11,843 bases of DNA, from the IMG/VR virus record IMGVR_UViG_3300045988_062539, positions 1 to 11,843 of that record. One strand, written 5' to 3'. This stretch comes from a virus. How positions within the stretch are numbered: position 1 is the stretch's first letter; every line of letters starts with the position of its first letter. This document shows positions 1-11,843 of the stretch, one piece after another. The position numbers and the translations under genes are program-made. The notes under the pieces are model-generated. The model had not been told where the DNA came from and made no database searches. It saw nothing but the letters and a program-made list of their open reading frames with translations.

Positions 1-201
1 AAAAGGTACACAAAGCACGCATATTTAACATTTTCCAACTATGTTTTAACATTTGCTAACACACTTTGGCACGGTTTTTGTTGTGCCACATTTACCGTCA
101 TTGTTAACACACTTTAACACATTTAACACACCGTTAACACAGTTAATTTTTTCATAAAAGAAATGTTTCACGTGGAACAGTAAGAGAAGATGTTTCATGT
201 G
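1..201. repeat. Left inverted terminal repeat (perfect part)
   Basis: Positions 1-201 are the exact reverse complement of 11643-11843, checked base by base. The first mismatch is at 202 (g versus a), then imperfect homology with a 1-nt indel runs to about 212. The terminus reads 5'-AAAAGG. Confidence 0.97.
104..140. repeat. Phased TTAACAC direct-repeat array inside the left ITR
   Basis: TTAACAC starts at 104, 114, 123 and 134 (spacing 10, 9, 11 bp). Related TTAACAT at 25 and 46 and CTAACAC at 56. Confidence 0.8.
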
Positions 202-206
202 GAACA
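164..206. promoter_or_regulatory. Two operator-like 16-bp imperfect palindromes (TGTTTCACGTGGAACA and TGTTTCATGTGGAACA)
   Basis: Sites at 164-179 and 191-206, 27 bp apart start to start. Seven of 8 and 6 of 8 positions are self-complementary. The implied consensus is TGTTTCAcgTGAAACA. Confidence 0.6.
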
Positions 207-267
207 AAAGTGAATAATATGTTAAAATAATTTAAATTTAAAATTTTACATTATTTAACAAAAATAA

Positions 268-299
268 TTTGGTGATTTCGTGAAAAAGTCGTATCTTTG
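268..299 (+). promoter_or_regulatory. Bacteroidota-type promoter (-33 TTTG, -7 TATCTTTG) for the left arm
   Basis: TTTG at 268-271, a 20-nt spacer, then TAtcTTTG at 292-299, about 45 nt upstream of the ATG at 344. Matches the TTTG / TAnnTTTG consensus of the Bacteroides primary sigma factor. Confidence 0.65.
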
Positions 300-343
300 C
301 AACGTGATTAAGAAACAAAGTTGAACAATTAAAAATAAAAATT

Positions 344-634
344 ATGGCAAAGTATAAATTTATAGTTAGTGTAGATATAACTAGTTTCAAAGGTAGTAAC
401 GTTGCGACAACCGAAACAGTTACATTATCAAATTATGGTAACAACAACAAAGGTTTTAAAACCTTACAGGTTGCAAAAAATTTCTTTAAAGAAATTGTTG
501 AATCTTTATCAACTAGCGACAATAAAGAAAACGTTTTATATAATATCAAAGATAATAAAAATTTTTCTTTGGGTTATTATGATAAAGTGAATAGAGAATT
601 TATAAATAGAGAATATAAAGTTGTACGAATTTAA
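344..634 (+). CDS. Hypothetical protein (96 aa)
   Basis: ATG-to-TAA ORF, first gene after the left promoter. The composition looks protein-like, but I recognise no motif. Confidence 0.6.
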   Translation: MAKYKFIVSVDITSFKGSNVATTETVTLSNYGNNNKGFKTLQVAKNFFKEIVESLSTSDNKENVLYNIKDNKNFSLGYYDKVNREFINREYKVVRI

Positions 635-643
635 TGTTTAACC

Positions 644-669
644 GCCTGTAGGGGTAACACCTTACAGGC
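644..669 (+). other. GC-rich stem-loop after the first left-arm ORF
   Basis: gcctgtaggg (644-653) pairs with cccttacaggc-type arm 660-669: 10 bp including one G-U, with a 6-nt loop. It is followed by ATAAAAATAA, so there is no U-tract and this is not a classic terminator. Confidence 0.4.
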
Positions 670-686
670 ATAAAAATAATTGATAT

Positions 687-881
687 ATGGAACATAGTTA
701 TTTTAAAATCACTCTTAAACAGGCTACTACAGAAACGGTTTTTATGGTACGTTCTGACAAAGTAAGTGAATTCTTTAACAACAAAATCGACTACCTACAG
801 GGGGACTGTTCAATAACTGTAAAGGGTCGTTTTCCTACACACAAAGACAGTAGAAAATGGTTTGTAATTTCAACTAAATAA
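687..881 (+). CDS. Hypothetical protein (64 aa)
   Basis: ATG-to-TAA ORF that fills the gap between the neighbouring left-arm genes. No recognisable motif. Confidence 0.5.
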   Translation: MEHSYFKITLKQATTETVFMVRSDKVSEFFNNKIDYLQGDCSITVKGRFPTHKDSRKWFVISTK

Positions 882-888
882 TAATGAT

Positions 889-1311
889 ATGAAAAGAATT
901 AAGTATTTTAGTTTGTCTGAGTTCATCAACTCGGCAACTGCAAAACGTTTGGGCATTGATAATACCCCTACGTTTGAGGTAGTCGACAACTTAAACCGTT
1001 TAGCCGATTATTTGGATAAAATTCGTGAAAAGTTGGGTAAACCTATCTTAATTAATAGCGGTTTTCGTTGCCCGATGTTAAATAAAGCCGTTGGGGGTGT
1101 GGCTAATAGCCAACACTTAAAAGGTTTAGCCGCCGATGTTGTTTGTAGTGATATGAATACATTAGAAAAGGTTATAAGAGAAACAGGCGGTTTTGACCAA
1201 TTTATTAAAGAACACCGCAAAGGTTCTACTTCTTTTTGGTTTCATGTTTCAGTTTGTAACCGTAACGGTAAACCAAGACAACAAGTTATAATGAATCTAG
1301 AAAAGAAATAA
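889..1311 (+). CDS. Endolysin, zinc peptidase of the M15 (VanY / D-Ala-D-Ala carboxypeptidase-like, Peptidase_M15_3-type) family
   Basis: N-terminal YFSLSEF motif, then SGFRCPMLNKAVGGVANSQHLKGLAADV. This gives the H-x6-D zinc ligands (H76, D83) with a distal FWFHVSV histidine (H119), the characteristic signature of this small phage peptidase family. Confidence 0.85.
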   Translation: MKRIKYFSLSEFINSATAKRLGIDNTPTFEVVDNLNRLADYLDKIREKLGKPILINSGFRCPMLNKAVGGVANSQHLKGLAADVVCSDMNTLEKVIRETGGFDQFIKEHRKGSTSFWFHVSVCNRNGKPRQQVIMNLEKK

Positions 1312-1346
1312 AAAAACAGGCGGTAACATATTTACCGCCTGTTTTA
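1312..1346. terminator. Bidirectional intrinsic terminator between the convergent arms
   Basis: An 11-bp perfect stem, acaggcggtaa (1316-1326) with ttaccgcctgt (1332-1342), and a 5-nt loop. It has an A-run on the left and a T-run on the right, and sits between stop codons at 1309-1311 (+) and 1348-1350 (-). Confidence 0.85.
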
Positions 1347-1347
1347 T

Positions 1348-3198
1348 TTATAGATAAACACCGTTTGAAAGTTGTGAAACAATTTCATTAAATTCGTCAA
1401 CTAGCATACTATTAGTTGTTGTTAAGTTAACGTTTTCAAACTGTGCAAACCCTGTAACGTCCCCAATACGTTTTTGCTCTGTTGTGTTATTTACAGGAAC
1501 ATTTAACGGGTCAAAGTACTTAACAGTAACATAAGGTTCTAAACCCATTAAAACCGTATTTAAATCGCTTAAATCCCCGATAGTACTTATCTCATCATTC
1601 GCCAACGTTTTATAAATAATTTCGCTGCTACAATTTGCCGTACCGTTATTAATAGTAATACTGTCACATGATAAATTATAGGCACAATAACCTGTAATTA
1701 AATCTATATCGTAACTTAAATTTAATTCTTTTCCGATAAAATCACTATCTACAGGCACAAAACCCACAAACGGTATGAAACATTGTATAGTAGCGTTAAA
1801 ATCGTTTCCACTATCAGAGTTAACAGGTAATAGCACGTTTCCGAAATCTACGGGCACCTTAGAATTGTCAACACTATTTGTATTAATACTTGTATCAAAG
1901 TTAGCCAACTTTAAAGACGTTGGTGAAACATTCGGTACGTCCACGTAAACTTTGTGTAACCTGTTCACATATTCCCCAATATCATAATATTCATATTCAT
2001 AATTTTCATTTAACTTTTTAGTGAAACGAATTTTTGAAAAATCATCTAAAGTCTTTGTGTTGACTAGATACACGTTAATACTACCATAACCTGTTATTTC
2101 TGTGTCGGGGGCTGTTCCACCTAACAGAGTAAAAGTTGAATCACTTACTTTTTCTTTGTCGTTTGGGAACGTAAAAGTTAACGTTGCAGTTTTACCGTTG
2201 TTACTCAGAACAAAAGTGTGTTCTTCTGCTCCACCTGTTAACGGTTCCCAATTAGCAACAGGCAAATTTTTCGCATCGAAATGAGTTTTACTATTTGCCG
2301 TTGCAATAACGTTAATAGTTTCGTTTTCGATGTAATAAGGTTTTAACCCTGTTACGTTGCACCCTGTCATATTATTAACAGTTGTGCAAACAAGACGGTA
2401 AGCACCCGACAAAGTAACCGTTGTGCCCTGTTTTACATCAGTTAATGATATATTTATAACGTTTCCCGAAAAATCGGGTACAACTGTTTTCGTTTCCCCG
2501 TTAACGTCCGTATACTCTACAGAAACACCCACAAACTTTGCAGAATCACTATTACCTGTAACAGTTATAGAAACGTTTGTACCGTCTATAGTGTGCGTTT
2601 CATCACAATTACCTGTAATATTATTTATTATCTCAGTTTCCTTTGCTACTGTTTCACCTGTGAAAATCCACCCTACATTTAAGTTATTTAAAGGTGTTGA
2701 AACATATTGTTGTGCTACTGTATTATTATGTGAATAATCGAAACCTCCATCTAAATCATTTTTTAATGTTCCCTCAACAAATTTAAAACCGTTATCGGCT
2801 TTTAATGTTATTCTAGTTATAGCGTTGTTTCTGTCATCACTATTTACACCTGTATACATCTGCTCCAACGTACTGTGTGGAACGTTATTGACCAAATTAC
2901 CTAAAGTAAGTTGTTCCCCGTTGTAAGTTGTAGAATAACCGATAACAGAAACACTCATGCTTGCATAATTGTAATTTTTTACCGTTTTTATTATTGTTTC
3001 CGTGCTATCTTTTACAGTTTCAACAGTTACGGTTTTATTGTGGAAGTTACTGTCATTATCCACAAATTCAAGTGTAAACGGTTCACCGTTCCAAACGGTA
3101 TTTGCATTTAGCGTAAAAGTACAAATAACGTCCCAACCCTTTGTTTTAAAATTAGCCGTTGCACCGTACAGGTTAAATTTTTTTATTGCTATACTCAT
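1348..3198 (-). CDS. Tail protein: N-terminal beta-rich (putative receptor-binding) modules fused to a phi29 gp9-like tail-knob C-terminal region
   Basis: 616 aa. About aa 370-616 recall gp9: IPFVGFVPVDSDFIGKELNLSYDI versus phi29 [23 protein letters not shown]. The C-terminus FAQFENVNL..DEFNEIVSQLSNGVYL matches FNYVQTKD..DLQEIRTIFDNGITLW. About aa 1-370 are T/N/V-rich, with two similar modules starting NNITGNC (about aa 191) and NNMTGC (about aa 275). Confidence 0.65.
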   Translation of the reverse strand: MSIAIKKFNLYGATANFKTKGWDVICTFTLNANTVWNGEPFTLEFVDNDSNFHNKTVTVETVKDSTETIIKTVKNYNYASMSVSVIGYSTTYNGEQLTLGNLVNNVPHSTLEQMYTGVNSDDRNNAITRITLKADNGFKFVEGTLKNDLDGGFDYSHNNTVAQQYVSTPLNNLNVGWIFTGETVAKETEIINNITGNCDETHTIDGTNVSITVTGNSDSAKFVGVSVEYTDVNGETKTVVPDFSGNVINISLTDVKQGTTVTLSGAYRLVCTTVNNMTGCNVTGLKPYYIENETINVIATANSKTHFDAKNLPVANWEPLTGGAEEHTFVLSNNGKTATLTFTFPNDKEKVSDSTFTLLGGTAPDTEITGYGSINVYLVNTKTLDDFSKIRFTKKLNENYEYEYYDIGEYVNRLHKVYVDVPNVSPTSLKLANFDTSINTNSVDNSKVPVDFGNVLLPVNSDSGNDFNATIQCFIPFVGFVPVDSDFIGKELNLSYDIDLITGYCAYNLSCDSITINNGTANCSSEIIYKTLANDEISTIGDLSDLNTVLMGLEPYVTVKYFDPLNVPVNNTTEQKRIGDVTGFAQFENVNLTTTNSMLVDEFNEIVSQLSNGVYL

Positions 3199-3200
3199 AA

Positions 3201-3638
3201 CTAATTACCTTTAATAGTTACCATTATAATGTTATCATTATCACTAAATAACCCTTTATTAGGAAAATCTAGCTTTTTGAGTTTAGGGCGCAAATCGTAA
3301 GCATTTGTACGGTTTGATGCATACCCGTTTACGGTTTCACCTTTTGTTAACGTTCCTGTAGAATCCAAGATTTTATCTTTGTAAGTCATTAAAACGTCTG
3401 TACGCAAATAAACCGTACATATATCACCGTCTTGTCGTATTTCAGAAACGAAATAGTAACGGTGTAAACTTTCGATATAAACGTAATTAAACGTTACTAC
3501 GTTACGTGTACGGAAACGGATAACAGGTTCTAATATGTTTACAGTTGAATTTAATACACCTGTGTATTCTTCGTTTTCCTGTAGTGTCTTATTAACTCTG
3601 TTAGGTTCACCGTTATAATTATAAGTTTTTATCAGCAT
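3201..3638 (-). CDS. phi29 gp9-like tail-knob N-terminal domain protein (145 aa from the ATG at 3638)
   Basis: NYVYIESLHRYYFVSEIRQDGDICTVYLRTDVLMTY resembles the phi29 gp9 N-terminus (SYIMFQNADYGNKWFYAFVTELEF..VHFEIDVLQTWMF). The track start at 3677 is a TTG lying inside the hairpin at 3656-3695, so the ATG at 3638 is preferred. The ORF ends in TAG, 2 nt before the next ATG. Confidence 0.6.
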   Translation of the reverse strand: MLIKTYNYNGEPNRVNKTLQENEEYTGVLNSTVNILEPVIRFRTRNVVTFNYVYIESLHRYYFVSEIRQDGDICTVYLRTDVLMTYKDKILDSTGTLTKGETVNGYASNRTNAYDLRPKLKKLDFPNKGLFSDNDNIIMVTIKGN

Positions 3639-3655
3639 ACCACAAAAATTTAAAA

Positions 3656-3695
3656 AGGGTGTGCCCCGTGCTATCAACTACAGGAAACACACCCT
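3656..3695 (-). terminator. Hairpin with T-tract just after the capsid gene (possible leaky terminator)
   Basis: An 8-bp stem, agggtgtg (3656-3663) with cacaccct (3688-3695), and a 24-nt loop. On the minus strand it is followed by TTTTTAAATTTTT. The large loop makes it weak. Confidence 0.4.
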
Positions 3696-3716
3696 CAACA
3701 GTTAAACAACTAAAAA

Positions 3717-4901
3717 TTAGGCAACAAAGAACACAACAAAGTTTTCGTTTGTGTCATTGAAATAGCCAGCGTCAAACTTGTAATAGTTGTTAAAGAATTC
3801 CGCTTTTGCGTTGTAGTTGGTTGTTACTCGCTTATCAAGGTTTGTTACGCCTAAAGCGTCACGGTCGAACATAACACCCAACACACCGCTTATAGAAACA
3901 GACGCTCCGCTTGCACTCTTTACGTCAATTTTTGACGTGTGCTCAAATGAATAGTCTTTACCTGTTGCTTGCCAACTTGCAACAGTCTCAGCCGTTGGCA
4001 ACAATACGTTGTCGTTATGGTAAGTATCAGCATACAAATAGGTTTTGGCTGCTGCTGCGAAATCAGACAACAAAACGGTGTGCAAAATATCTTTTGGTGT
4101 AAAACGTTCTTTACCGCCAACGTTGAACAGGGTTGAAATTGTCTGCAAACGGTCTGAGTACAGTCCCATAATATAAGCAGCGAAACGGATAAAATCCGGG
4201 GTTGTTATCGCTGCTTTTGCAGTCAATTTTGCCCCTGTCTTATCGTTGTAAAGTTTCAACAGGTTAACGCACCGAACAGTACTTGCACTTGAATAGTCAA
4301 CAGTTTCGTGTGTTGACTCTACGAAACCAAAAGCCTTCTTGTCTGCGTCCAACGTCTCAGCTATCATGTTGTTAATTGTGCGCATAATAAGAGCGTCCAT
4401 TTTGATAGTCATTGATTTGTCAACGGCTGAGTAAATCATTGACAAGAAACCGTTCATTTGTTCCGCACTACTGAAACTTTCTTTTACCTGTCTTTCTGTG
4501 ATAGATACAGGAACCTCAAAAGTTACCTTTGAGTTAAAGAATTTTGCGGTAACGGTCGGTTTGTGGAAAACGTCCTGTTTGTACTCTTTACCGTCCTGTA
4601 AGTTCCAGGTATCGTTTTCTTCTGCATCGGGCACATCAGCCGAAATCTTTTCCAATATAGAACCGAATTCCCATGCGTCCATAAGCACACTTGGAACTTT
4701 ACCCGAATAAGGGCGGTTTACGAAAACCACTTTGCCGATATGGTTTACAAGTGATTTAACATAATTGTCAACTGCGTTTTGGTTGAACACTTCGTTACCC
4801 AAATCGACTAAACCTGTAAGGTCTTCGTTAACAAGTTCTGTATTACCCAAAACCTCACCCGATACGGTGTTAACTAAACTATAAATCTGTTTTACGTTCA
4901 T
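3717..4901 (-). CDS. Major capsid protein (phi29 gp8-like, HK97 fold expected)
   Basis: 394 aa. [22 protein letters not shown] parallels phi29 gp8 [42 protein letters not shown] parallels [22 protein letters not shown]. The position after the portal and a small protein is typical for a capsid gene. Confidence 0.75.
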   Translation of the reverse strand: [394 protein letters not shown]

Positions 4902-4920
4902 TTTTATAAAAATTAAGTAA

Positions 4921-5490
4921 TTAATAAATATCTACTGTTAACTCTTTTGCAAGTTCTGTGATTACTTGCGTTTTGAAATTAGTTTTGCGCAAACTCATTT
5001 CTTTTTGAATAATTTCACTAACAGGAACACCGCCCGACAAACTGTTCTTAACAACTGTTTTCGTAGCTGTTTCTTGTCGGTTCCCTGTAGAGTTTCTTTG
5101 TTGCTTTGTGTCATTTCCGAAATCTCCATTATTAAATGCTACACTTGAATTGACTGAGTTGTTATTCCCTGTTTCGTCCACGGTGTTATTTACCGTTTCA
5201 CTTGTCTTTTCTGTTACAGGGCTTAACACTTCGTATTGTTTATTAAACACTTGAATCTGTTTTTGCCACTCATCAAATTTAACCGTAATAATACCTTTTA
5301 CAATATCGTTTGCAGTTTCATTTGTGATAGCGTTAACTAGAGTTCGTTCCCCGTATTTGAAACGTAAATCAATATCAATTAGTTTCGGGTCGTCTTCCCC
5401 GAATATTGAATCGTACAAAACAGGAAACAGGGGTTTAAAGATTTTTTCAAATAACCCGTTTTCAGTTGTGAAAAGTTCATTAATTTTCAT
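4921..5490 (-). CDS. Virion morphogenesis protein of unclear role (scaffold or lower-collar/adaptor candidate)
   Basis: 189 aa. The ATG overlaps the portal stop by 11 nt. The central region is low-complexity N/S/T-rich. The assignment rests on position only. Confidence 0.35.
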   Translation of the reverse strand: MKINELFTTENGLFEKIFKPLFPVLYDSIFGEDDPKLIDIDLRFKYGERTLVNAITNETANDIVKGIITVKFDEWQKQIQVFNKQYEVLSPVTEKTSETVNNTVDETGNNNSVNSSVAFNNGDFGNDTKQQRNSTGNRQETATKTVVKNSLSGGVPVSEIIQKEMSLRKTNFKTQVITELAKELTVDIY

Positions 5491-6544
5491 CTTTGTTTTC
5501 TTTTTCTTCTGTTTCTTCTGTTTCTTGCGTTTCTTCTGTTTCCGTTTCTGTTTCTTCTGTTTCTTGCGTTTCTTCTGTTTCTGTTTCTGTTTCTTCTGTT
5601 TCTTGCGTTTCTTCTGTTTCGTTTTCCGTTACAGGGTCAACGTCTTCTGTATCGGTGTGGTAGTGTCCGTCTTCTGTTGCTTGGAGCAACGACAAATAAT
5701 TTTCGTGCTCGATTTTCCAACTTGACCCCAAAGTTACGGTTATTTCCGTACCGAACATTTCGTTAACACGTTTCACACCCTCAACACGTTCTGTTAACAT
5801 CGAATCTACAAAAGGTAATAAAGCGTCTATATTCATTGAAACTTCTTGCGTGTTCAACCGTTCACGTTTCATGTTATAGTTAGCATTCAAACCCAAATCG
5901 TTAAACATGCTAGCTTTGTAGTACTGTAACAGTTCAATTAATTGCCCGATTTGTTGGTTTCCCTGTGTTGGCGGTGTTTGCAAGTTTACACCTTTGAAAA
6001 AGGCATTTTCACCTATTACTGAGAAATCACCGCTCAAAATCTTTTGCAAAAACAATTCTGCACTTTGTTTTGTCTTATCATCGCTAGCAGAAATTAACAT
6101 CGTGATACGTGTTAAAATACTTGCCAAATTAAGCGTTATTGTTGCGTCTGTGTAAAGAACACCATATTTACCGATAATAGGCAAAAGTGAATCTGCAAAC
6201 GGTGTATTGTTGATAACGACAATATCTGAATCAATTTTAAACGTTTTGTTCAAATTTAACCATGGGTTTGTAACCACGTAATCTTTGCCGTGATAATACG
6301 CATCACATTCACCTCCACGTGTACCCTGTAAAGCATACAGTTCCCCGTTAACTTTTGCAATTCCAACGTTACCCGATGTTTGTAGAATCTTTTCAAGTTC
6401 TACAGGGGGCATTGTTTCGGGTGTACCCGTGTACTCAAACATCTTCGAAGTCATACAAAGAACACGTTGCATAAATGTGAATAATGCAGAATCTTTGTCT
6501 TTTACTTCTGTTTGATACCTGTTATATAAGTTTTCTTTTTTCAT
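5480..6544 (-). CDS. Portal / head-tail connector (phi29 gp10-like) with an acidic repeat C-terminus
   Basis: 354 aa. [27 protein letters not shown] parallels phi29 gp10 [52 protein letters not shown] parallels [23 protein letters not shown]. Confidence 0.8.
   Translation of the reverse strand: [354 protein letters not shown]
5505..5622. repeat. 39-bp tandem repeat (about 3 copies) encoding the acidic [13 protein letters not shown] units of the portal tail
   Basis: cttgcgtttcttctgttt recurs at 5524, 5563 and 5602, exactly 39 bp apart. The two full units differ at one base. Confidence 0.9.
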
Positions 6545-6739
6545 TTACTTAATTAGAGTTTTAATTAAGGTACAAAGTTCTGTCAACACTTTTGTGTTAC
6601 TTTGCACTGTTTCGTTTAACTTGTCGGTTTCGTTTTGATGTCTTTCGTTCTGTTTCTCCATGTAGAAGAAAAGTGCGACACACACCGCAACAGGAAAACC
6701 AACGTTACTTATTAATGATACTATTCCGTTTACGTCCAT
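6545..6739 (-). CDS. Small single-pass membrane protein, YvrJ-like; holin candidate (64 aa from the ATG at 6739)
   Basis: The ISNVGFPVAVCVALFFYMEK hydrophobic segment resembles the YvrJ-family core (..GNVGFPI..), followed by a charged helical tail. The track start at 6799 is a GTG that overlaps the predicted promoter, so the ATG at 6739 is preferred. The TAA abuts the portal ATG. Confidence 0.55.
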   Translation of the reverse strand: MDVNGIVSLISNVGFPVAVCVALFFYMEKQNERHQNETDKLNETVQSNTKVLTELCTLIKTLIK

Positions 6740-6771
6740 ATAGCAAATTTTATCTTTGTTATTTAATGGTG

Positions 6772-6802
6772 CAAATATAGCACTTTTATTTGGTATCACA
6801 AA
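6772..6802 (-). promoter_or_regulatory. Internal Bacteroidota-type promoter for the morphogenesis genes
   Basis: The minus strand reads TTTG (6802-6799), a 19-nt spacer, then TAtaTTTG (6779-6772), about 33 nt upstream of the ATG at 6739. Confidence 0.5.
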
Positions 6803-6819
6803 ATAAAACGGGGGGAAAG

Positions 6820-6835
6820 TGTTTCACGTTAAACA
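6820..6835. promoter_or_regulatory. Fifth copy of the ITR palindrome (TGTTTCACGTTAAACA) just upstream of the internal promoter
   Basis: 14 of 16 identical to the ITR site at 164-179, with 7 of 8 positions self-complementary. It lies 18 bp upstream of the -33 box. Confidence 0.55.
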
Positions 6836-6858
6836 TTTTTTAACCCAGTTAACAGATA

Positions 6859-7998
6859 TTAAGCAATAATGTTACTTCTTGCACTTGCCATTAAGTAATT
6901 TCGCACAATTTCACCAATTTCGTTATTCTGATAAAATACCTTATCGGTTGCGAAATATCTAGTAATCTGTGACTCTAGATAAGTCGCAGTACTCAATAAC
7001 TTTCGTTTGTAGTTTGGTTTGCCGTTCATTTGCAAAGAATATATCAAACTTTTGTCTGTGTCCTTTATCGGGGTTGTCTTGTTGTGGATATAAATAAAGT
7101 TATTCACCCCGTTTTCTTTGTCCTCAATCTGTATCACGTTGCCCTGTAATGTCATTTCGTTAAACTGAATATAGAAGACAAACAACACATCGTTCGGTTT
7201 GTACTTTACAGGTAGGTGTGGATATACAGCGAGTTCCCATTTACCGCCCGTAATCATTTGCAAATTTTCATTGTCAAAACAGAAGTATTTGTTACTAGCT
7301 TTCTGTTTAACAATCGTGCTACAGTATTCTACTGCAACCGTTGCACCGTGTTCGCCGAATCTATAAATATCAATTGTTCCCTGTTCCATAACTCGCACCT
7401 GTTTTAAACCCATTTCTGTAAAGTACGGGCAAAACTGATTAACGGTGTTACCTAACATAAATACTTTAACATCGTTTCTCTGTCTGATAATTGTACTCAA
7501 CAGGTTCATATATAACATAAACTCATCGGGTAAATAATAGCGTCTAGTCAAAAATTCATCGAATACAACTGTGGTTATATTCGGGTAACTGCTTGACTTT
7601 TCGTGTTCCTGTTCTGATAAACAGAAACCGAAACAGAACGGTGTGTTATCGGGTACACGTTTTTTGGTTTCAGGGTCATAAGACGAAAGAAACCATTTAC
7701 CCGAAATGTAAAACACTTCGTTAAACTTACCGTCTGTAAGTTCCTGTATCACACCGTTTGCCACATGATTTGCAAATAAACTTTCGGCACGTTTTCCCCT
7801 TAAATCTTCTCGCCAACGTCTAATATATGCCATTTGTTTTCCTGTCTTAAGATATTCTTTGATACCGTACAACAGGGTGGCATAAGTTTTACCGTTTGAA
7901 CGTTCACCAAATATAACGTTATAATCGGCATTCTTTGCCAAAATTCGTGAAAGACTGTAAAACTTTGGCGTTTCTACTTTTTCTTTTTTCTGTTTCAT
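6859..7998 (-). CDS. DNA packaging (encapsidation) ATPase, phi29 gp16-like
   Basis: 379 aa. Walker A is FGERSNGKT (G31-T38; compare phi29 gp16 GARGIGKS). Walker B is TTVVFDEF (D147, E148). The ATG lies 1 nt after the polymerase stop. Confidence 0.8.
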   Translation of the reverse strand: MKQKKEKVETPKFYSLSRILAKNADYNVIFGERSNGKTYATLLYGIKEYLKTGKQMAYIRRWREDLRGKRAESLFANHVANGVIQELTDGKFNEVFYISGKWFLSSYDPETKKRVPDNTPFCFGFCLSEQEHEKSSSYPNITTVVFDEFLTRRYYLPDEFMLYMNLLSTIIRQRNDVKVFMLGNTVNQFCPYFTEMGLKQVRVMEQGTIDIYRFGEHGATVAVEYCSTIVKQKASNKYFCFDNENLQMITGGKWELAVYPHLPVKYKPNDVLFVFYIQFNEMTLQGNVIQIEDKENGVNNFIYIHNKTTPIKDTDKSLIYSLQMNGKPNYKRKLLSTATYLESQITRYFATDKVFYQNNEIGEIVRNYLMASARSNIIA

Positions 7999-7999
7999 A

Positions 8000-10210
8000 T
8001 TATTCTTTTTTTAATCTGATACCAATTAAATAATTTATATAAAGTACTGAAAGACTTAAAGTGTACCCCGTTGGTTCTAAGTGCACCCCTGTTACTGTGT
8101 CGTAACTTGAAATAACGCCTTTATAGTCTTTTATCGTACCTGTCTGTTCATAATCTATATATGTATGAATATTTTTACATGTTGCCGTTGGAGGTATGTC
8201 TAAGTAATTGGTAAAAGCGTCAAAGATACCTTTTTCCCCAAACGTTTCTAACATGTAGGGAATAGCAGTTTTTTTGTTAACACCCGAAACTGTCATACTG
8301 TAATTGTAATTTTTACCGTTAACAGTAAGGGCGTTTTCTTCTTCGACCAGGTACCTTTTAGCACCTAAAGTCTTAAAACGTCTGTATCGTCCTTCGTAAT
8401 CCCAAACGCCAAGCGGTTTAGCTATTCCTTTTATTGTTACGGGTTCAACCTTTTCAAAGGGTATTTTATGAAACTTACAGGCTGCACGTAATTTCTGTTG
8501 CGCTAAATCATTATATAGCTTAAAATATTCTTTGTGTGCATCGCCGTTCATTATCTTAACGCTATCTGTATCACTATATATGTAATCGTCTCCACATTCT
8601 GAAATACCTGTAAACAGGTTTCTTCTTGCATAAGCGGTTACATAAATACCCCAAGGGTAAAAAAGAAATCTGTTTCTGCTTTCGTTGTATTTGCTTAACA
8701 TTTCTAACTGTTTTTCGCCTGTTAGGTGTTCAACGTCCCAATTTTCACCGTTGCACAAAATTTCATCACGTAACGGGTTTGTAACGCACATACCGTAACA
8801 ACTGTTTAGCATTTCTTTGCTATTCAAATACTCAACTTCTTTTCCCTTTACGCCCTTTAGTTTGGTTTTCATTTCATACAGGTGTAAAATTGATAACACA
8901 AACTCAGTCGGTAAATATTCTTTTCTGTAACAAATCATTTTGCCTATTCGTATTTGTTCCCAAGAATAAAACTGTGAAAAAACTTTAAAGTCTATTTCTG
9001 TTATAGTCATACAGATTTTACTAGCACAAACTAAACGCCCGTTATTCTCGGAAACATTTTCTTTAACGAAACACTTACTTACCGATATAGGGGTTTCGTT
9101 TTCTGATTTTGCGAAAATGTTTGTTATCTCAATATCAAATACGCAACAAAATTTACTAGTCATAAAATTAAACTGTTTCATAGATTTAACAGGAACGACA
9201 ACACCCGTACTCATAGGAAATTTCTCCGATACCATAACGTACGGGTAACTACTTGTAAAATCGTAACTGTCTACGTTTTCCATTATTAAATCTGTATACT
9301 TTGCGTTTGCATGAGTAAAACCACCCGAGAAAGCACGTTGCAGCATTTCAAACTCTTCGATACCTGTTATATTTAAATCGTGTATTTTGTCGAAATACTT
9401 AAAGTTTGGTGTTGTCTTGCCTGTTTCTTCGTCTGTTTTCTTGAAACATACAGAACGGCAATATTTACGTACAAAACCTGTTTTTGTCAAAGGTAATTTT
9501 GTTATTCCCTTGTAACGTTCTATTAATTCCTGTACGTAACACATAACCACTTTTATATCGTTCAAACAATAACCAATTTCTTTTTGCGTCAACGGTGTTT
9601 TACTGTGTCGCAATAGACTATAGTCTAAATCCCCGACTAACTTTTCACACTTGTAAGTGTGTAACTGTTCGCCCAACTTTGCCAACGAATAACCCGAAAG
9701 TAAGTAACTGCATCGAAACTCTAAACCTGTTTTAGTTATTCCGTAAATCGGTTTGCGCAAATCTATAGAGAAAACTTTTTCCCAATCTAACAATTCACGG
9801 AAAAACTGAAATTCGTATGCTAAATTGTGAACGTATATAATAATACGTCTTTTTTGGTTTAAGTTTAACAAAATTACTATCTCAGATAACATTTGCAAAA
9901 ACTCTTTCCAGGTTCGACCCATTATGCAATATCCGTTAATTCCAAATTGCCAAACATACATTAAAGAACACTTTTCCATTTTGGTTTCTTTACCGCCTAA
10001 TTTTATATAGCGTTCATAACTGTAAGTTTCCCCGTACTCGTCCCTGTAAAAAGACGTTGTTTCAATATCGAAAGATACAGGAACGTTTAAGAACTTTTCG
10101 CCCTTATTGTTTCCTGTAAAATTTTTTTCGTTCACAGCCAAAGATAAAACCTTTGCAATTTCTTTTGGGGTGTAAACTTCTGCATGTAGTTCAAAGGGTA
10201 TCTTTTTCAT
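8000..10210 (-). CDS. Protein-primed family-B DNA polymerase
   Basis: 736 aa. Exo I FDIETT (D48, E50). Exo II HNLAYEFQF. SLAKL motif. Exo III YCLNDIKV (Y214, D218). Motif A DFTSSYP (D317). Motif B KEMLNSCYG (K465). Motif C YSDTDS (D547, D549). KxY as GAKRY (K618). Confidence 0.95.
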   Translation of the reverse strand: MKKIPFELHAEVYTPKEIAKVLSLAVNEKNFTGNNKGEKFLNVPVSFDIETTSFYRDEYGETYSYERYIKLGGKETKMEKCSLMYVWQFGINGYCIMGRTWKEFLQMLSEIVILLNLNQKRRIIIYVHNLAYEFQFFRELLDWEKVFSIDLRKPIYGITKTGLEFRCSYLLSGYSLAKLGEQLHTYKCEKLVGDLDYSLLRHSKTPLTQKEIGYCLNDIKVVMCYVQELIERYKGITKLPLTKTGFVRKYCRSVCFKKTDEETGKTTPNFKYFDKIHDLNITGIEEFEMLQRAFSGGFTHANAKYTDLIMENVDSYDFTSSYPYVMVSEKFPMSTGVVVPVKSMKQFNFMTSKFCCVFDIEITNIFAKSENETPISVSKCFVKENVSENNGRLVCASKICMTITEIDFKVFSQFYSWEQIRIGKMICYRKEYLPTEFVLSILHLYEMKTKLKGVKGKEVEYLNSKEMLNSCYGMCVTNPLRDEILCNGENWDVEHLTGEKQLEMLSKYNESRNRFLFYPWGIYVTAYARRNLFTGISECGDDYIYSDTDSVKIMNGDAHKEYFKLYNDLAQQKLRAACKFHKIPFEKVEPVTIKGIAKPLGVWDYEGRYRRFKTLGAKRYLVEEENALTVNGKNYNYSMTVSGVNKKTAIPYMLETFGEKGIFDAFTNYLDIPPTATCKNIHTYIDYEQTGTIKDYKGVISSYDTVTGVHLEPTGYTLSLSVLYINYLIGIRLKKE

Positions 10211-10839
10211 TATAAACCGAAATCTTTAAAAGAATCTAATATCTTTTGTACTGTTTCTTCGACTTTTTCGCCAACGTTATCAATACTATTTTGTAAGTTA
10301 TCGGCTATTTTTACCGCATCACTTTCAATTTGGTCTGATACGTCCCGTGCGTCCTGTTCAAGTTCGCCTGTAAAGTCTTTATATTGCATAAGGTATTTTT
10401 CCAAAAATTTTTGGTCTGATACACTGGCAATCTTACCAATCAATTTTTCTTGCATCAAAGAAAACTCATCGTCTGAAAGTTTATAAGTTTTCTTTAAATG
10501 TTTTGCGTATTCATTCGTACCTGTAGCTGTTGATGTTGGTTGCTGCAAAAATGCAATAGCCTTTGAATATTCAATTTTTAAATTGTTCCATTCGTGTTTC
10601 ATCGAAAATTTTGTATACCCTTTTACATCACCTTTATTTAAGGCAACTACAGCGGGTGAAACAACACCGTTTTTTTCTATATTCTGTATACGTCTGTTTG
10701 CCTGTTGAAACACTCTTGCAATTTCTTTTCGTAAACTGCTACTACTTTCAACTGCATTTATTATTTCTTTTTTGACGTGCGCTTTTTTCGTTGCCCTAAA
10801 GGTACGACCGCTAAAGCCTATTGGGTTTTTATTTGCCAT
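10210..10839 (-). CDS. Terminal protein candidate
   Basis: 209 aa, immediately upstream of the polymerase and coupled to it by a TAATG overlap, as for phi29 gene 3 and gene 2. It has a basic N-terminus, a helical acidic C-terminal half, and a C-terminal KILDSFKDFGL reminiscent of phi29 TP KILSYLEQYRRGDFDLSLKGF. I cannot assign the priming residue. Confidence 0.55.
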   Translation of the reverse strand: MANKNPIGFSGRTFRATKKAHVKKEIINAVESSSSLRKEIARVFQQANRRIQNIEKNGVVSPAVVALNKGDVKGYTKFSMKHEWNNLKIEYSKAIAFLQQPTSTATGTNEYAKHLKKTYKLSDDEFSLMQEKLIGKIASVSDQKFLEKYLMQYKDFTGELEQDARDVSDQIESDAVKIADNLQNSIDNVGEKVEETVQKILDSFKDFGL

Positions 10840-10854
10840 AACTTTTTAGTTTAA

Positions 10855-10899
10855 ATGAAACAAAAACAGGGATAACAATAAAACTACTGTTACCCCTGT
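10855..10899 (-). terminator. Strong intrinsic terminator/attenuator between the early small genes and the TP-polymerase genes
   Basis: The minus-strand RNA forms a 12-bp stem (acaggggtaaca with tgttatccctgt, one G-U) and a 10-nt loop, followed by TTTTTGTTTCATTT. It ends about 16 nt before the TP ATG. Confidence 0.7.
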
Positions 10900-10926
10900 A
10901 AAATTATCACCCTTTACCTACATTCG

Positions 10927-11292
10927 CTACTTGTCTACAAAGGTAATACCATAACACTTCTTTGCATGTGAATCGTATTCATAAATTGTGTAACCTACCT
11001 TGTTTTCCTTGATAGCCTCAACCGCATCACTATCTGCGAGAATATCTCGTATCGTGTCAGCTGTGAATTGTGGCAAGTTCACCAAACGTTTATTTTCTGC
11101 GTCAATTATTACAGGTGAATCACCCAACTGCGATTTGTGGACGTACAAACCATTGATAGGATGTACCACATCTGCGCCACCGTCATTTTTACTGTTGTAG
11201 ATGTCTATCAACTTTACAAACGGAAAATCGGTTGTATCAATACCGAAACTTGTTTTGTTGAACTTACTTGCAAAACTAAAACCTTTAACCAT
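10927..11292 (-). CDS. Hypothetical protein, candidate phi29 p5-like single-stranded DNA-binding protein
   Basis: 121 aa (phi29 p5 is 124 aa), in the syntenic position upstream of the TP. The C-terminal half LVNLPQFTADTIRDILADSDAVEAIKENKVGYTIYEYDSHAKKCYGITF loosely parallels p5 [48 protein letters not shown]. Weak, from memory. Confidence 0.35.
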   Translation of the reverse strand: MVKGFSFASKFNKTSFGIDTTDFPFVKLIDIYNSKNDGGADVVHPINGLYVHKSQLGDSPVIIDAENKRLVNLPQFTADTIRDILADSDAVEAIKENKVGYTIYEYDSHAKKCYGITFVDK

Positions 11293-11337
11293 AACTTAAA
11301 TATTTAACGTTAAACTTGTTGTACCTGTGCACAGGTG

Positions 11338-11505
11338 TTACTTTACTTCTGTTACACCGTTGGCGGCTGCAAATTCGTTAAGCCACTTCTTAAAGCGGTT
11401 CAACTTAATAACCGCCTTATCATCTTTAGCTACTTCGTTGCTTGTCATAAGTGCGTTAACACTTGTAATACAGTTGAAAACTGTTTCATTAAAATTTTCG
11501 TTCAT
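11338..11505 (-). CDS. Small hypothetical protein (55 aa), first gene of the right-end operon; below the ORF-track length cutoff
   Basis: Hand translation gives ATG at 11505 to TAA at 11338-11340: MNENFNETVFNCITSVNALMTSNEVAKDDKAVIKLNRFKKWLNEFAAANGVTEVK. It lies about 45 nt downstream of the right promoter, is co-oriented with all other right-arm genes, and has an in-frame stop upstream of the ATG. Confidence 0.55.
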   Translation of the reverse strand: MNENFNETVFNCITSVNALMTSNEVAKDDKAVIKLNRFKKWLNEFAAANGVTEVK

Positions 11506-11554
11506 AATTACCTTAATTTTAAATTGTTAAACTTATTGTTTCTAAAACACGGTG

Positions 11555-11585
11555 CAAAGATACGTCAAATTTATGAATCCACAAA
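11555..11585 (-). promoter_or_regulatory. Bacteroidota-type promoter (-33 TTTG, -7 TATCTTTG) for the right arm
   Basis: The minus strand reads TTTG (11585-11582), a 19-nt spacer, then TAtcTTTG (11562-11555). This is the same -7 octamer as the left promoter. Confidence 0.65.
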
Positions 11586-11637
11586 ATTATTTTTGTTAAA
11601 TAGTGTTAAAGAATTAATTTAATAGTTGTTAACACTT

Positions 11638-11680
11638 TGTTTCACATGAAACATCTTCTCTTACTGTTCCACGTGAAACA
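11638..11680. promoter_or_regulatory. Two operator-like palindromes at the right end (TGTTTCAcaTGAAACA and the mirror of 164-179)
   Basis: 11638-11653 is a perfect 7+7 inverted repeat around a 2-nt centre. 11665-11680 is the ITR mirror of 164-179. Confidence 0.6.
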
Positions 11681-11843
11681 TTTCTTTTATGAAAAAATTA
11701 ACTGTGTTAACGGTGTGTTAAATGTGTTAAAGTGTGTTAACAATGACGGTAAATGTGGCACAACAAAAACCGTGCCAAAGTGTGTTAGCAAATGTTAAAA
11801 CATAGTTGGAAAATGTTAAATATGCGTGCTTTGTGTACCTTTT
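11643..11843. repeat. Right inverted terminal repeat (perfect part)
   Basis: Exact reverse complement of 1-201. Confidence 0.97.
11704..11740. repeat. Phased GTGTTAA array inside the right ITR (mirror of 104-140)
   Basis: Mirror image of the left array by ITR symmetry. Confidence 0.8.

Follow-up and report, generated by a model that had tools for sequence, protein, structure and literature searches.

The window analysed here, that is, the whole stretch of 11,843 nt comprising positions 1 to 11,843 of IMG/VR virus record IMGVR_UViG_3300045988_062539, carries 14 genes between long inverted terminal repeats (ITRs). It is likely to be the complete, linear, double-stranded DNA genome of an uncultivated, virulent, miniature podophage of the phi29 type that stands near the genus Astrithrvirus in a clade mostly from the gut, with Bacteroidota as the most likely hosts. 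All 14 genes begin with ATG, are free of internal stop codons under genetic code 11, and together span 90.6% of the window; 12 of them terminate in TAA, two in TAG, and none in TGA. No tRNA genes were found in the window, and its small uncharacterized proteins had no matches in NCBIfam or PHROGs. The genes and terminal repeats are listed below, with conservation given as counts out of 87 loci, the window included; the Astrithr group stands for Astrithrvirus and the related phages described further on.

1-208 (both strands): left ITR, 201 nt perfect, 208 nt with one mismatch, beginning AAA(A)GGTACACAAAGCAC, a terminus kept across the clade
344-634 (+): g96, 96 aa, no assigned function; variable, with homologues in 4 of 87 loci
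687-881 (+): g64, 64 aa, no assigned function; present in 79 of 87 loci
889-1311 (+): endolysin, zinc peptidase M15_3 (PF08291, 2.6e-22), with HLKGLAAD at 76 and WFH at 117
1348-3198 (-): distal tail protein, 616 aa, of which residues 322-616 correspond to the large knob subunit known from the Astrithr group (25% identical to gp10 of assan)
3201-3638 (-): small tail-knob subunit, 145 aa, equivalent to the N-terminal region of gp9 (phi29) and gp12 (phage C1)
3717-4901 (-): major capsid protein (MCP), phi29 type (PF25622, 5.9e-54; PHROG match)
4921-5490 (-): g189, conserved morphogenesis protein, 189 aa, 21-26% identical to gp07 of astrithr and gp7 of Phanie
5480-6544 (-): portal or upper collar connector, gp10 type (PF05352, 9e-14; PHROG upper collar connector, 4e-36)
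6545-6739 (-): holin-like single-pass membrane protein, 64 aa (phrog_4898 holin, 4e-8)
6859-7998 (-): DNA-packaging ATPase, gp16 type (PF05894, 4.6e-23; PHROG match), with Walker A GERSNGKT and Walker B TVVFDE
8000-10210 (-): family-B DNA polymerase (PolB), protein-primed type (PF03175, organellar and viral family-B polymerases, 3e-15; phrog_1907, 1e-68)
10210-10839 (-): terminal-protein candidate, 209 aa, directly upstream of PolB, its stop codon overlapping the polymerase start by 1 nt
10927-11292 (-): g121, early protein, no assigned function; 85 of 87 loci
11338-11505 (-): g55, small early gene, 55 aa; 85 of 87 loci, with a promoter at a median of 49 nt upstream
11636-11843 (both strands): right ITR, the mirror of 1-208

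The polarity of this map agrees with a preliminary description of the same sequence: three genes run inward from the left end, and the right end accounts for all others; the tight junctions noted there were also found, with base 10210 shared between the terminal-protein candidate and PolB and a spacer of 1 nt between PolB and the ATPase. The functions that it had proposed for the core, namely a protein-primed PolB, an ATPase of the gp16 type, a gp10-like portal, a gp8-like capsid, and an endolysin, agree with the Pfam and PHROG matches; with the holin-like gene added, six genes have a firm family assignment. Its gene list was otherwise in need of revision: g55 had been missed, the likeliest starts of two open reading frames (ORFs) of 158 and 84 aa are the internal ATGs at 3638 and 6739, and the tail knob is made up of two genes. 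The start at 6739, that of the holin-like gene, is preferred because the position of the internal promoter described below supports it.

The sole PDB match of PolB was the phi29 polymerase (1XHX, 5e-8), and the motifs ExoI, YxGG, Dx2SLYP, Kx3NSxYG, YxDTDS, and KxY read FDIET, FSGG, DFTSSYP, KEMLNSCYG, YSDTDS, and KRY, respectively. The 209-aa protein encoded before it is homologous to the protein that precedes PolB in Salmonella phage astrithr, Acinetobacter phage Aci01-2-Phanie (Phanie), and Vibrio phage K58 g2 (K58), and the motifs ANKRI..LE, SPAY, KFS, and TST..G are kept; the conserved residues S61, S103, T104, and Y149 are candidates for the DNA-linking position. An all-helical fold is predicted for it, although the AlphaFold2 (AF2) model, built on a 22-sequence alignment, is of low confidence (predicted local distance difference test, pLDDT, 39). 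Three negative results count against a phi29-type interpretation: the candidate reached an hhalign probability of 0.2% with the p3 profiles of phi29, GA-1, and B103, its sequence profile was without a PDB match, and a packaging RNA (pRNA) was not found, Rfam at E ≤ 1 giving only terminator-hairpin noise and no de novo search being made. Terminal proteins are known to diverge beyond recognition, and pRNAs are strongly divergent as well. Since the candidate is without detectable likeness to phi29 p3, protein priming is argued from the polymerase family together with the ITRs and the gene position, and we infer that the 209-aa candidate is the primer protein. It would prime DNA synthesis at both genome ends, where the terminal A run would permit a sliding-back step as known from phi29.

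Packaging would proceed through the gp16-type ATPase and the portal. The portal has an acidic C-terminus of ~50 residues, a TEETQE tandem repeat with a 39-nt period (TEETQETEETETE..., 5480-5640, minus strand) that might serve in DNA mimicry or in scaffold contact. The product of g189 may be a scaffold or, alternatively, a shortened lower collar; its profile had no significant similarity to gp11 or gp7 of phi29, GA-1, or B103, and no match in PDB. A gp9-like tail knob had been proposed in the preliminary description, and for the 145-aa subunit this was borne out: its profile matched PDB 4EO2_A (“Major tail protein”, residues 21-152, E = 4.3e-5), which we take to be phage C1 gp12, and residues 91-130 of gp9 (E = 4e-4), the sole significant result among the phi29-group profile comparisons. 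The knob is split into two genes, however, and the 616-aa protein was neither significantly similar to gp9 in the profile comparison nor matched in a PDB sequence-profile search.

This 616-aa protein is a hotspot of diversity: nt 1601-3200, a segment that covers its N-terminal three quarters, is alignable in just 12-14% of relatives; at least 17 types of the tail protein, of 443-894 aa, occur among 85 relatives. In the AF2 model, the N-terminal residues 1-360 are beta-rich at moderate confidence, and the conserved C-terminal part has a pLDDT of ~25. To judge from the sequences, the hypervariable N-terminal part is probably an adhesion or recognition module. Host-marker domains (e.g., BACON) were absent from 16 tail-protein variants, which had only generic beta-sandwich domain matches (PKD, InlB-repeat, and Sushi). 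Additionally, residues 122-232 of the window protein gave a sub-threshold Pfam match to DUF6705 (E = 1.3e-4; 22.3 bits, with a cut-off of 24.4), a family that occurs mainly in Bacteroidota.

Counted base by base inward from both ends of the window, the perfect ITR match is 201 bases, the length that had been given for it in the preliminary description. A repeat finder reports the arms 1-208 and 11636-11843 at 100% complementarity; position 202 is taken as mismatched because the count from the very ends stops at 201. Farther inward, a degenerate extension pairs 213-318 with 11536-11641 (75%). The first bases of the window are AAAAGGTACAC, and the same terminus, AAAGGTACAC, lies at or near the contig end in 34 loci among the retrieved relatives (consensus AAAGGTACACAA(A/G)GCAC), with at least 20 contigs ending exactly on it. 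In nine contigs, an Illumina adapter (...GCTCTTCCGATCT) is joined straight to the first A of the terminus, at both ends in L014, L018, L021, L022, L047, L069, and L085 and at one end in L024 and L087, and in L038 and L075 unrelated DNA of 85 and 52 nt, respectively, is joined exactly at the terminus base. Adapter or unrelated DNA at one fixed base indicates ligation to a free duplex end. The termini are real, and 5'-AAAGGTACAC is the clade-conserved physical end of these genomes. Reads running past the ends or closing the molecule into a circle had been the main refuting case in the preliminary description, and the public assemblies bear on it indirectly. Adapter remnants (...GTGACTGGAGTTCAGACGTGTGCTCTTCCGATCT) at AAAGGTACAC persist in public IMG/VR contigs and in one contig of a GTDB metagenome-assembled genome (MAG); they are database contamination, yet they also mark the true DNA end.

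An artefact of assembly, in which the ITRs and the apparent completeness would be spurious and the true molecule would be a circle or belong to an element that is integrated or resembles a plasmid, is extremely improbable. Assemblers can create inverted duplications at contig ends, and the ITR lengths of several relatives equal typical k-mer sizes (55, 99, 119, and 141); however, dozens of independent assemblies end at one nucleotide, with adapter or unrelated DNA joined exactly there, and across genomes the ITRs vary from 85 to 419 nt and diverge in sequence. Both ends also bear inward, functional-looking promoters, and domain, PHROG, and NCBIfam scans of the window proteins gave no integrase, partition, or plasmid replication gene. 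One contig does speak against a free linear molecule, namely ENA k141_124282 (L100, 16.8 kb), in which bacterial-like DNA lies beside the terminus (positions 1-1340, 33% GC, with genes for acetyltransferases, ATC_hydrolase, and DUF6440). This flank is one-sided and starts 8 nt inside the terminus, and it is read as a chimera rather than an integration; the L038 and L075 fusions are probably chimeras at a free DNA end. A further contig, L097 (ENA k141_31118, 20,354 bp), exceeds one genome by 8.7 kb. With the polymerase, capsid, portal, and ATPase families on the one hand and the fixed ends on the other, the earlier proposal of a complete, linear, ITR-bounded phi29-type genome holds.

To place this genome among known phages, the window was compared with 50,697 deposited phage genomes by megablast, which returned nothing. 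Protein-level searches, tblastn among them, gave as relatives the Salmonella phages astrithr, assan, and Astrid (genus Astrithrvirus, 11.6-11.7 kb), Phanie, Pectobacterium phage DU_PP_III, Enterobacter phage Entb_47, Shigella phage vB_SHGBLB0004, and Vibrio phage K58 g2; like the window, Astrithrvirus and the last four have genomes of 10.4-11.9 kb. Nine to ten of the 14 window proteins have homologues in the Astrithr group, at identities of 56-58% for MCP, 51-53% for the ATPase, 41-47% for PolB, and 37-39% for the portal. Gene order in astrithr, Phanie, and K58 is that of the window, running from small early genes through a ~200-aa protein, PolB, the ATPase, a small membrane protein, the portal, a ~185-aa protein, MCP, and a ~145-aa protein to a large distal tail protein. 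The co-directional chain that the preliminary description had held up as a novelty against phi29 is thus the Astrithrvirus layout, and only the placement of the lysin differs: in Astrithr-type phages the lysin gene comes after the tail gene and shares its orientation, whereas the M15 peptidase of the window belongs to an opposite-strand operon at the left end.

Other differences from the Astrithr-type phages concern the lysin itself, which is annotated as an amidase in Phanie and resembles CHAP-domain lysins in the Astrithr group (PMC11476376), the termini (GGCTAGGG in astrithr vs. AAAGGTACAC in the window), and the early and left-end small genes, which are unrelated to those of the window. 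Astrithr-type phages also have strong Shine-Dalgarno (SD) sites and no Bacteroidota-type promoters, and the window has the reverse. Phanie (57.6% identity to the window in MCP, 53% in the ATPase, and 44% in PolB; ITR of 171 nt) shares the split tail knob and the large multi-domain distal protein, which there has 855 aa and is annotated as alginate lyase-like, but it uses SD sites and has a gammaproteobacterial host.

The usual genus criterion of the International Committee on Taxonomy of Viruses is a nucleotide intergenomic similarity of ~70% or more. Nucleotide coverage multiplied by identity to the window is 0.09 for astrithr and 0.06-0.09 for the Astrithr group, so that the window, at a similarity of only 0.09, belongs to a genus separate from Astrithrvirus. 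By sequence comparison, the window is a member of an unnamed group, of genus level or higher, next to Astrithrvirus.

The kind of phage and its size class are already known, and the cluster, with many faecal genomes, is already catalogued. The view of the window as a distinct, highly reduced lineage was accordingly given up, since phi29-like phages of ~11.5 kb from Gram-negative hosts, including Astrithrvirus, Phanie, and DU_PP_III, had been reported before. A 2024 review (Evseev et al.) describes the phi29-like phages of Gram-negative hosts as having genomes of 11-14 kb, a shortened lower collar, and a split tail knob, and its Table S1 places >200 faecal or human-metagenome genomes in MCP cluster 23 (PMC11476376); a preprint counts Astrid among the smallest tailed-phage genomes. 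In gene order, size, split knob, and MCP relatedness, the window fits the features of this Astrithr-like cluster 23. Another faecal, phi29-like genome of ~12 kb, “Bacteriophage sp. isolate 2692_55609”, has a proposed Bacteroidales host, but it belongs to MCP cluster 30 and is reported to be related to Amedibacillus phage AD70P2 and not to the Astrithr group (PMC11476376); Amedibacillus-type genomes have ~30-35% identity to the window in MCP and PolB.

With phi29 and the Salasmaviridae, the window shares the catalytic motifs of the polymerase, the MCP, the gp10 connector, the gp16 ATPase, and the N-terminal region of the knob. The terminal A run is also common to both (phi29 ends in AAAGTA, compared with AAAGGT in the window), as are early promoters pointing inward from the two ends and a terminator that acts in both directions where convergent units meet. 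In contrast, phi29 has 19.3 kb and 6-nt ITRs (repeat_region annotation of NC_011048), compared with 11.8 kb and 201-nt ITRs here; the gene order differs, and the lysis genes of the window are of Gram-negative type, with a host presumably outside the Firmicutes. No homologues of p3 (by sequence), p4, p5, p6, gp7, gp8.5, gp11, gp12, or gp13 were detected in the window.

A scan of IMG/VR with the MCP gave 303 relatives, 80 of which were retrieved (83-96% MCP identity, nearly all 11.4-12.7 kb). Among metagenome proteins, the terminal-protein candidate has 3,567 homologue clusters at 90% identity, one of them with 431 members, and at least one member of the clade is deposited in GenBank as “Bacteriophage sp.” Coverage multiplied by identity to the window is 0.80-0.90 for the nearest retrieved genomes and 0.32 for a sub-branch of 44% GC (L088 and L089). 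Nearly all of the genome is collinear among relatives, except for nt 1601-3200 in the tail gene and for the left-end small genes (nt 401-800), which align in only 40% of them. Neighbour-joining trees of MCP and PolB both group the genomes lacking SD sites into one clade beside the SD-using ones. Separately, L092-L096, from MAGs of rabbit and other metagenomes, form an SD-using branch of 30-32% GC with 52-64% MCP identity; they appear to be unclassified and fall beyond the SD-less clade, among the Astrithr-like genomes that use SD sites.

The absence of SD sites and the A-rich leaders, both noted in the preliminary description, were confirmed quantitatively. Over the 20 nt upstream of the starts, the mean duplex energy with the anti-SD is -0.85 kcal/mol in the window, compared with a background of -1.08, and none of 13 genes reaches -4.5; the corresponding means are -6.3 for astrithr, -7.1 for Phanie, and -4.5 for Vibrio K58. 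With a uniform ORF caller, SD sites were absent in every relative at ≥75% MCP identity, the 44%-GC members included, and present in every relative at ≤64%. Leaders of the SD-less clade are instead rich in adenine (frequencies of 0.56, 0.73, and 0.70 at -14, -13, and -12; 0.48 at -6; and 0.52 at -3; ~0.33 overall), with 0.86 at both -13 and -12 in the window, whereas the SD-using relatives have guanine at -13 to -9. An adenine enrichment at -3, -6, and -11 to -15, in leaders without SD sites, has been described for Bacteroidetes mRNAs (PMC7366714).

The candidate regulatory elements of the window are as follows.

268-299 (+): left-end inward promoter, -33 TTTG, 20-nt spacer, -7 TATCTTTG, 45 nt before the first ATG
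6772-6802 (-): internal promoter of Bacteroidota type, probably late, in the gap between the ATPase and holin-like genes
11555-11585 (-): right-end inward promoter, TTTG-N19-TATCTTTG
1308-1351 (both strands): bidirectional intrinsic terminator, 14-bp stem and T run, an A run serving the opposite strand (-22.2 kcal/mol, z = -8.6)
10866-10899 (-): terminator-like hairpin, 15 bp followed by a T run, between g121 and the terminal-protein gene
104-140 (+): TTAACAC array, four repeats ~10 nt apart within the ITR, mirrored at 11704-11740
164-206 (both strands): pair of the 16-nt palindrome TGTTTCACGTGGAACA, copies at 164-179 and 191-206, mirrored at 11638-11653 and 11665-11680
6820-6835 (both strands): fifth palindrome copy, located 17 nt ahead of the -33 element of the internal promoter

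Six instances of TTTG-N17-23-TAnnTTTG occur in the window, compared with 1.5 expected (1 of 200 shuffles reached six), and none occurs in astrithr, Phanie, or K58. Among relatives, exactly one TTTG-N20-TA(T/C)CTTTG was found at each of 32 lysin-side ends and at 28 of 29 replication-side ends, and the internal promoter is present in 83 of 86, its median distance to the holin-like gene downstream being 33 nt. The flanks are conserved as well, with A before and G after the -33 TTTG and GCA after the -7 element; the spacer is variable. Since -33 TTTG and -7 TAnnTTTG make up the sigma-ABfr consensus of Bacteroides (PMC7366714), the three conserved promoter-like sites match that consensus at the level of sequence, as the preliminary description had held for the Bacteroidota. 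An outward promoter or pRNA gene in the ITR was also considered and rejected: a conserved TATTTTTG, recognized by eye, abuts the inward -33 element, but has no correctly spaced -33 TTTG.

These expression signals point to the Bacteroidota, which we regard as very likely hosts, although priority for the idea does not lie with the window, a Bacteroidales-infecting phi29-like phage having already been proposed (PMC11476376). Three observations pull the other way. A weak sigma-70 site (TTGGTG, 17 nt, TATCTT) is an alternative reading of the promoter. The endolysin, although 44-50% identical to its counterparts in Bacteroides fragilis siphophages, is equally similar to lysins of Achromobacter and Burkholderia phages, and thus shows only a Gram-negative-type lysin and does not discriminate between hosts. 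Finally, the two GTDB contigs closest by MCP are binned in the MAGs Candidatus Melainabacteria js4906-20-3_S2_33_49 (91%) and Candidatus Gastranaerophilales HGM07946 (90%).

The same phage might accordingly be assigned to another SD-poor, low-GC gut host, above all the Melainabacteria (Gastranaerophilales), and the name of the first of these MAGs, read as ~33% GC, would be near the 35-37% of the phage; lineages related to Cyanobacteria use few SD sites. We nevertheless consider this quite improbable, as the invariant pair of -33 TTTG and -7 TAyCTTTG at three positions and the adenine at -11 to -14, -6, and -3 together are the published signature of Bacteroidetes, and the 44%-GC members L088 and L089 suit Bacteroidales better. 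The bins of the relatives with 52-78% MCP identity are, moreover, scattered over Prevotella, Scatosoma, Staphylococcaceae, Tissierella, and Clostridia. The GTDB contigs L086-L096 as a whole are binned as Melainabacteria, Gastranaerophilales, Prevotella, Scatosoma, Staphylococcaceae, Tissierella, Clostridia, and Anaeromicropila, and the table of the review lists relatives under Methanobrevibacter (PMC11476376). As the taxa of these MAGs are so scattered, the binning of such short, high-copy contigs is unreliable.

For a phage of Bacteroidota, the motifs suggest a simple scheme of transcription. The right-end promoter would drive g55, g121, the terminal-protein candidate, the polymerase, and the ATPase; the internal promoter would drive the holin-like protein, the portal, g189, the capsid protein, and the two tail proteins; and the left-end promoter would drive g96, g64, and the endolysin. 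The bidirectional terminator sits between the two convergent transcription units, both of which would stop at the 1308-1351 hairpin. Transcription from the right end may also be attenuated at the hairpin at 10866-10899, which may be an attenuator parting the very early genes from the replication genes. In six relatives, a promoter-like site precedes the terminal-protein gene in place of this hairpin.

Two repeated elements could add regulation to this scheme. The heptamer TTAACAC occurs 16 times in the window, compared with 6.0 expected (0 of 200 shuffles reached 16), eight of the copies being in the ITR arrays, and we infer the array to be a candidate site for an origin-organizing or DNA-binding protein. 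The palindrome TGTTTCACGTGGAACA has five sites (10 strand matches), compared with 0.27 expected, and in 79 of 82 relatives one copy precedes the internal promoter by 14-17 nt. By analogy with p4 and p6 of phi29, this placement suggests a candidate operator, through which a regulator would link the genome ends to the early-late switch. Alternatively, the internal palindrome could belong to a terminator hairpin; the window copy folds weakly (-7 kcal/mol, z = 0.3), and those of relatives look better.

The gene set had been called self-sufficient in the preliminary description. The autonomy of the phage is in doubt, however, on account of its best-studied relative, Phanie, which according to the review was reported by Pourcel (2024) to be a satellite in need of the tail of a helper myophage, and the review suggests that helper dependence may extend to the whole Gram-negative group (PMC11476376). 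The window may likewise encode a satellite with its own replication, packaging, capsid, and stub tail, whose virions would gain infectivity only by attaching to the tail of a helper, an unrelated phage that infects the same host; this is possible, if doubtful. Phanie belongs to the same group, with the same gene order and the MCP and ATPase identities given above, and has the split tail knob in common with the window, in which domain, PHROG, and NCBIfam scans of the proteins recognized no tail fibre, spike, or appendage gene. Names such as Aci01-2-Phanie and Vibrio K58 g2 resemble those of second genomes in a lysate, multi-phage preparations are on record (the multi-record S.Ent 1-35-3, and an Astrithrvirus in a nine-phage cocktail), and the hypervariable N-terminal part of the 616-aa protein could recognize either a cell or a helper tail. 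However, one preprint calls Astrid a non-satellite, no helper can be identified from the sequence, and the window encodes lysis functions of its own as well as a distal tail protein, large and variable, that is possibly a receptor-binding protein.

A broader version of this idea, in which the whole SD-less clade would consist of widespread, Bacteroidota-infecting satellite podophages that build capsids themselves, replicate by protein priming, and ride on the tails of other gut phages, is unlikely; the N-terminal part of the 616-aa protein would then be an adaptor choosing the helper tail or the host. If it were true, hitch-hiking virions would be a common strategy in the human gut virome, and if the clade shares the helper dependence of Phanie, interactions between satellites and helpers in the gut would be commoner than thought.

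What appears to be new is that a whole, abundant, monophyletic branch beside Astrithrvirus has, to judge from its leaders and promoter motifs, switched to SD-less expression of the sigma-ABfr type. Also new are the defined physical terminus of this branch and a transcription map of three promoters and one terminator, as deduced from the motifs. The window provides a complete, end-defined reference genome for a branch from the gut, abundant but uncultivated, of the tailed phages with the smallest genomes known. For data quality, it matters that MAGs of many unrelated taxa appear to be contaminated by these contigs and that several public copies keep the adapter. Candidate parts for Bacteroidota genetics include the three short promoters, the bidirectional terminator, and the self-priming replicon. 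In the evolution of the group, the phi29-type core would have moved to hosts with a different sigma factor and SD-independent translation, its promoters and leaders being rewired while the gene order stayed fixed; the branch would thus offer a natural example of a minimal virus adapting its expression signals in a host jump between phyla.

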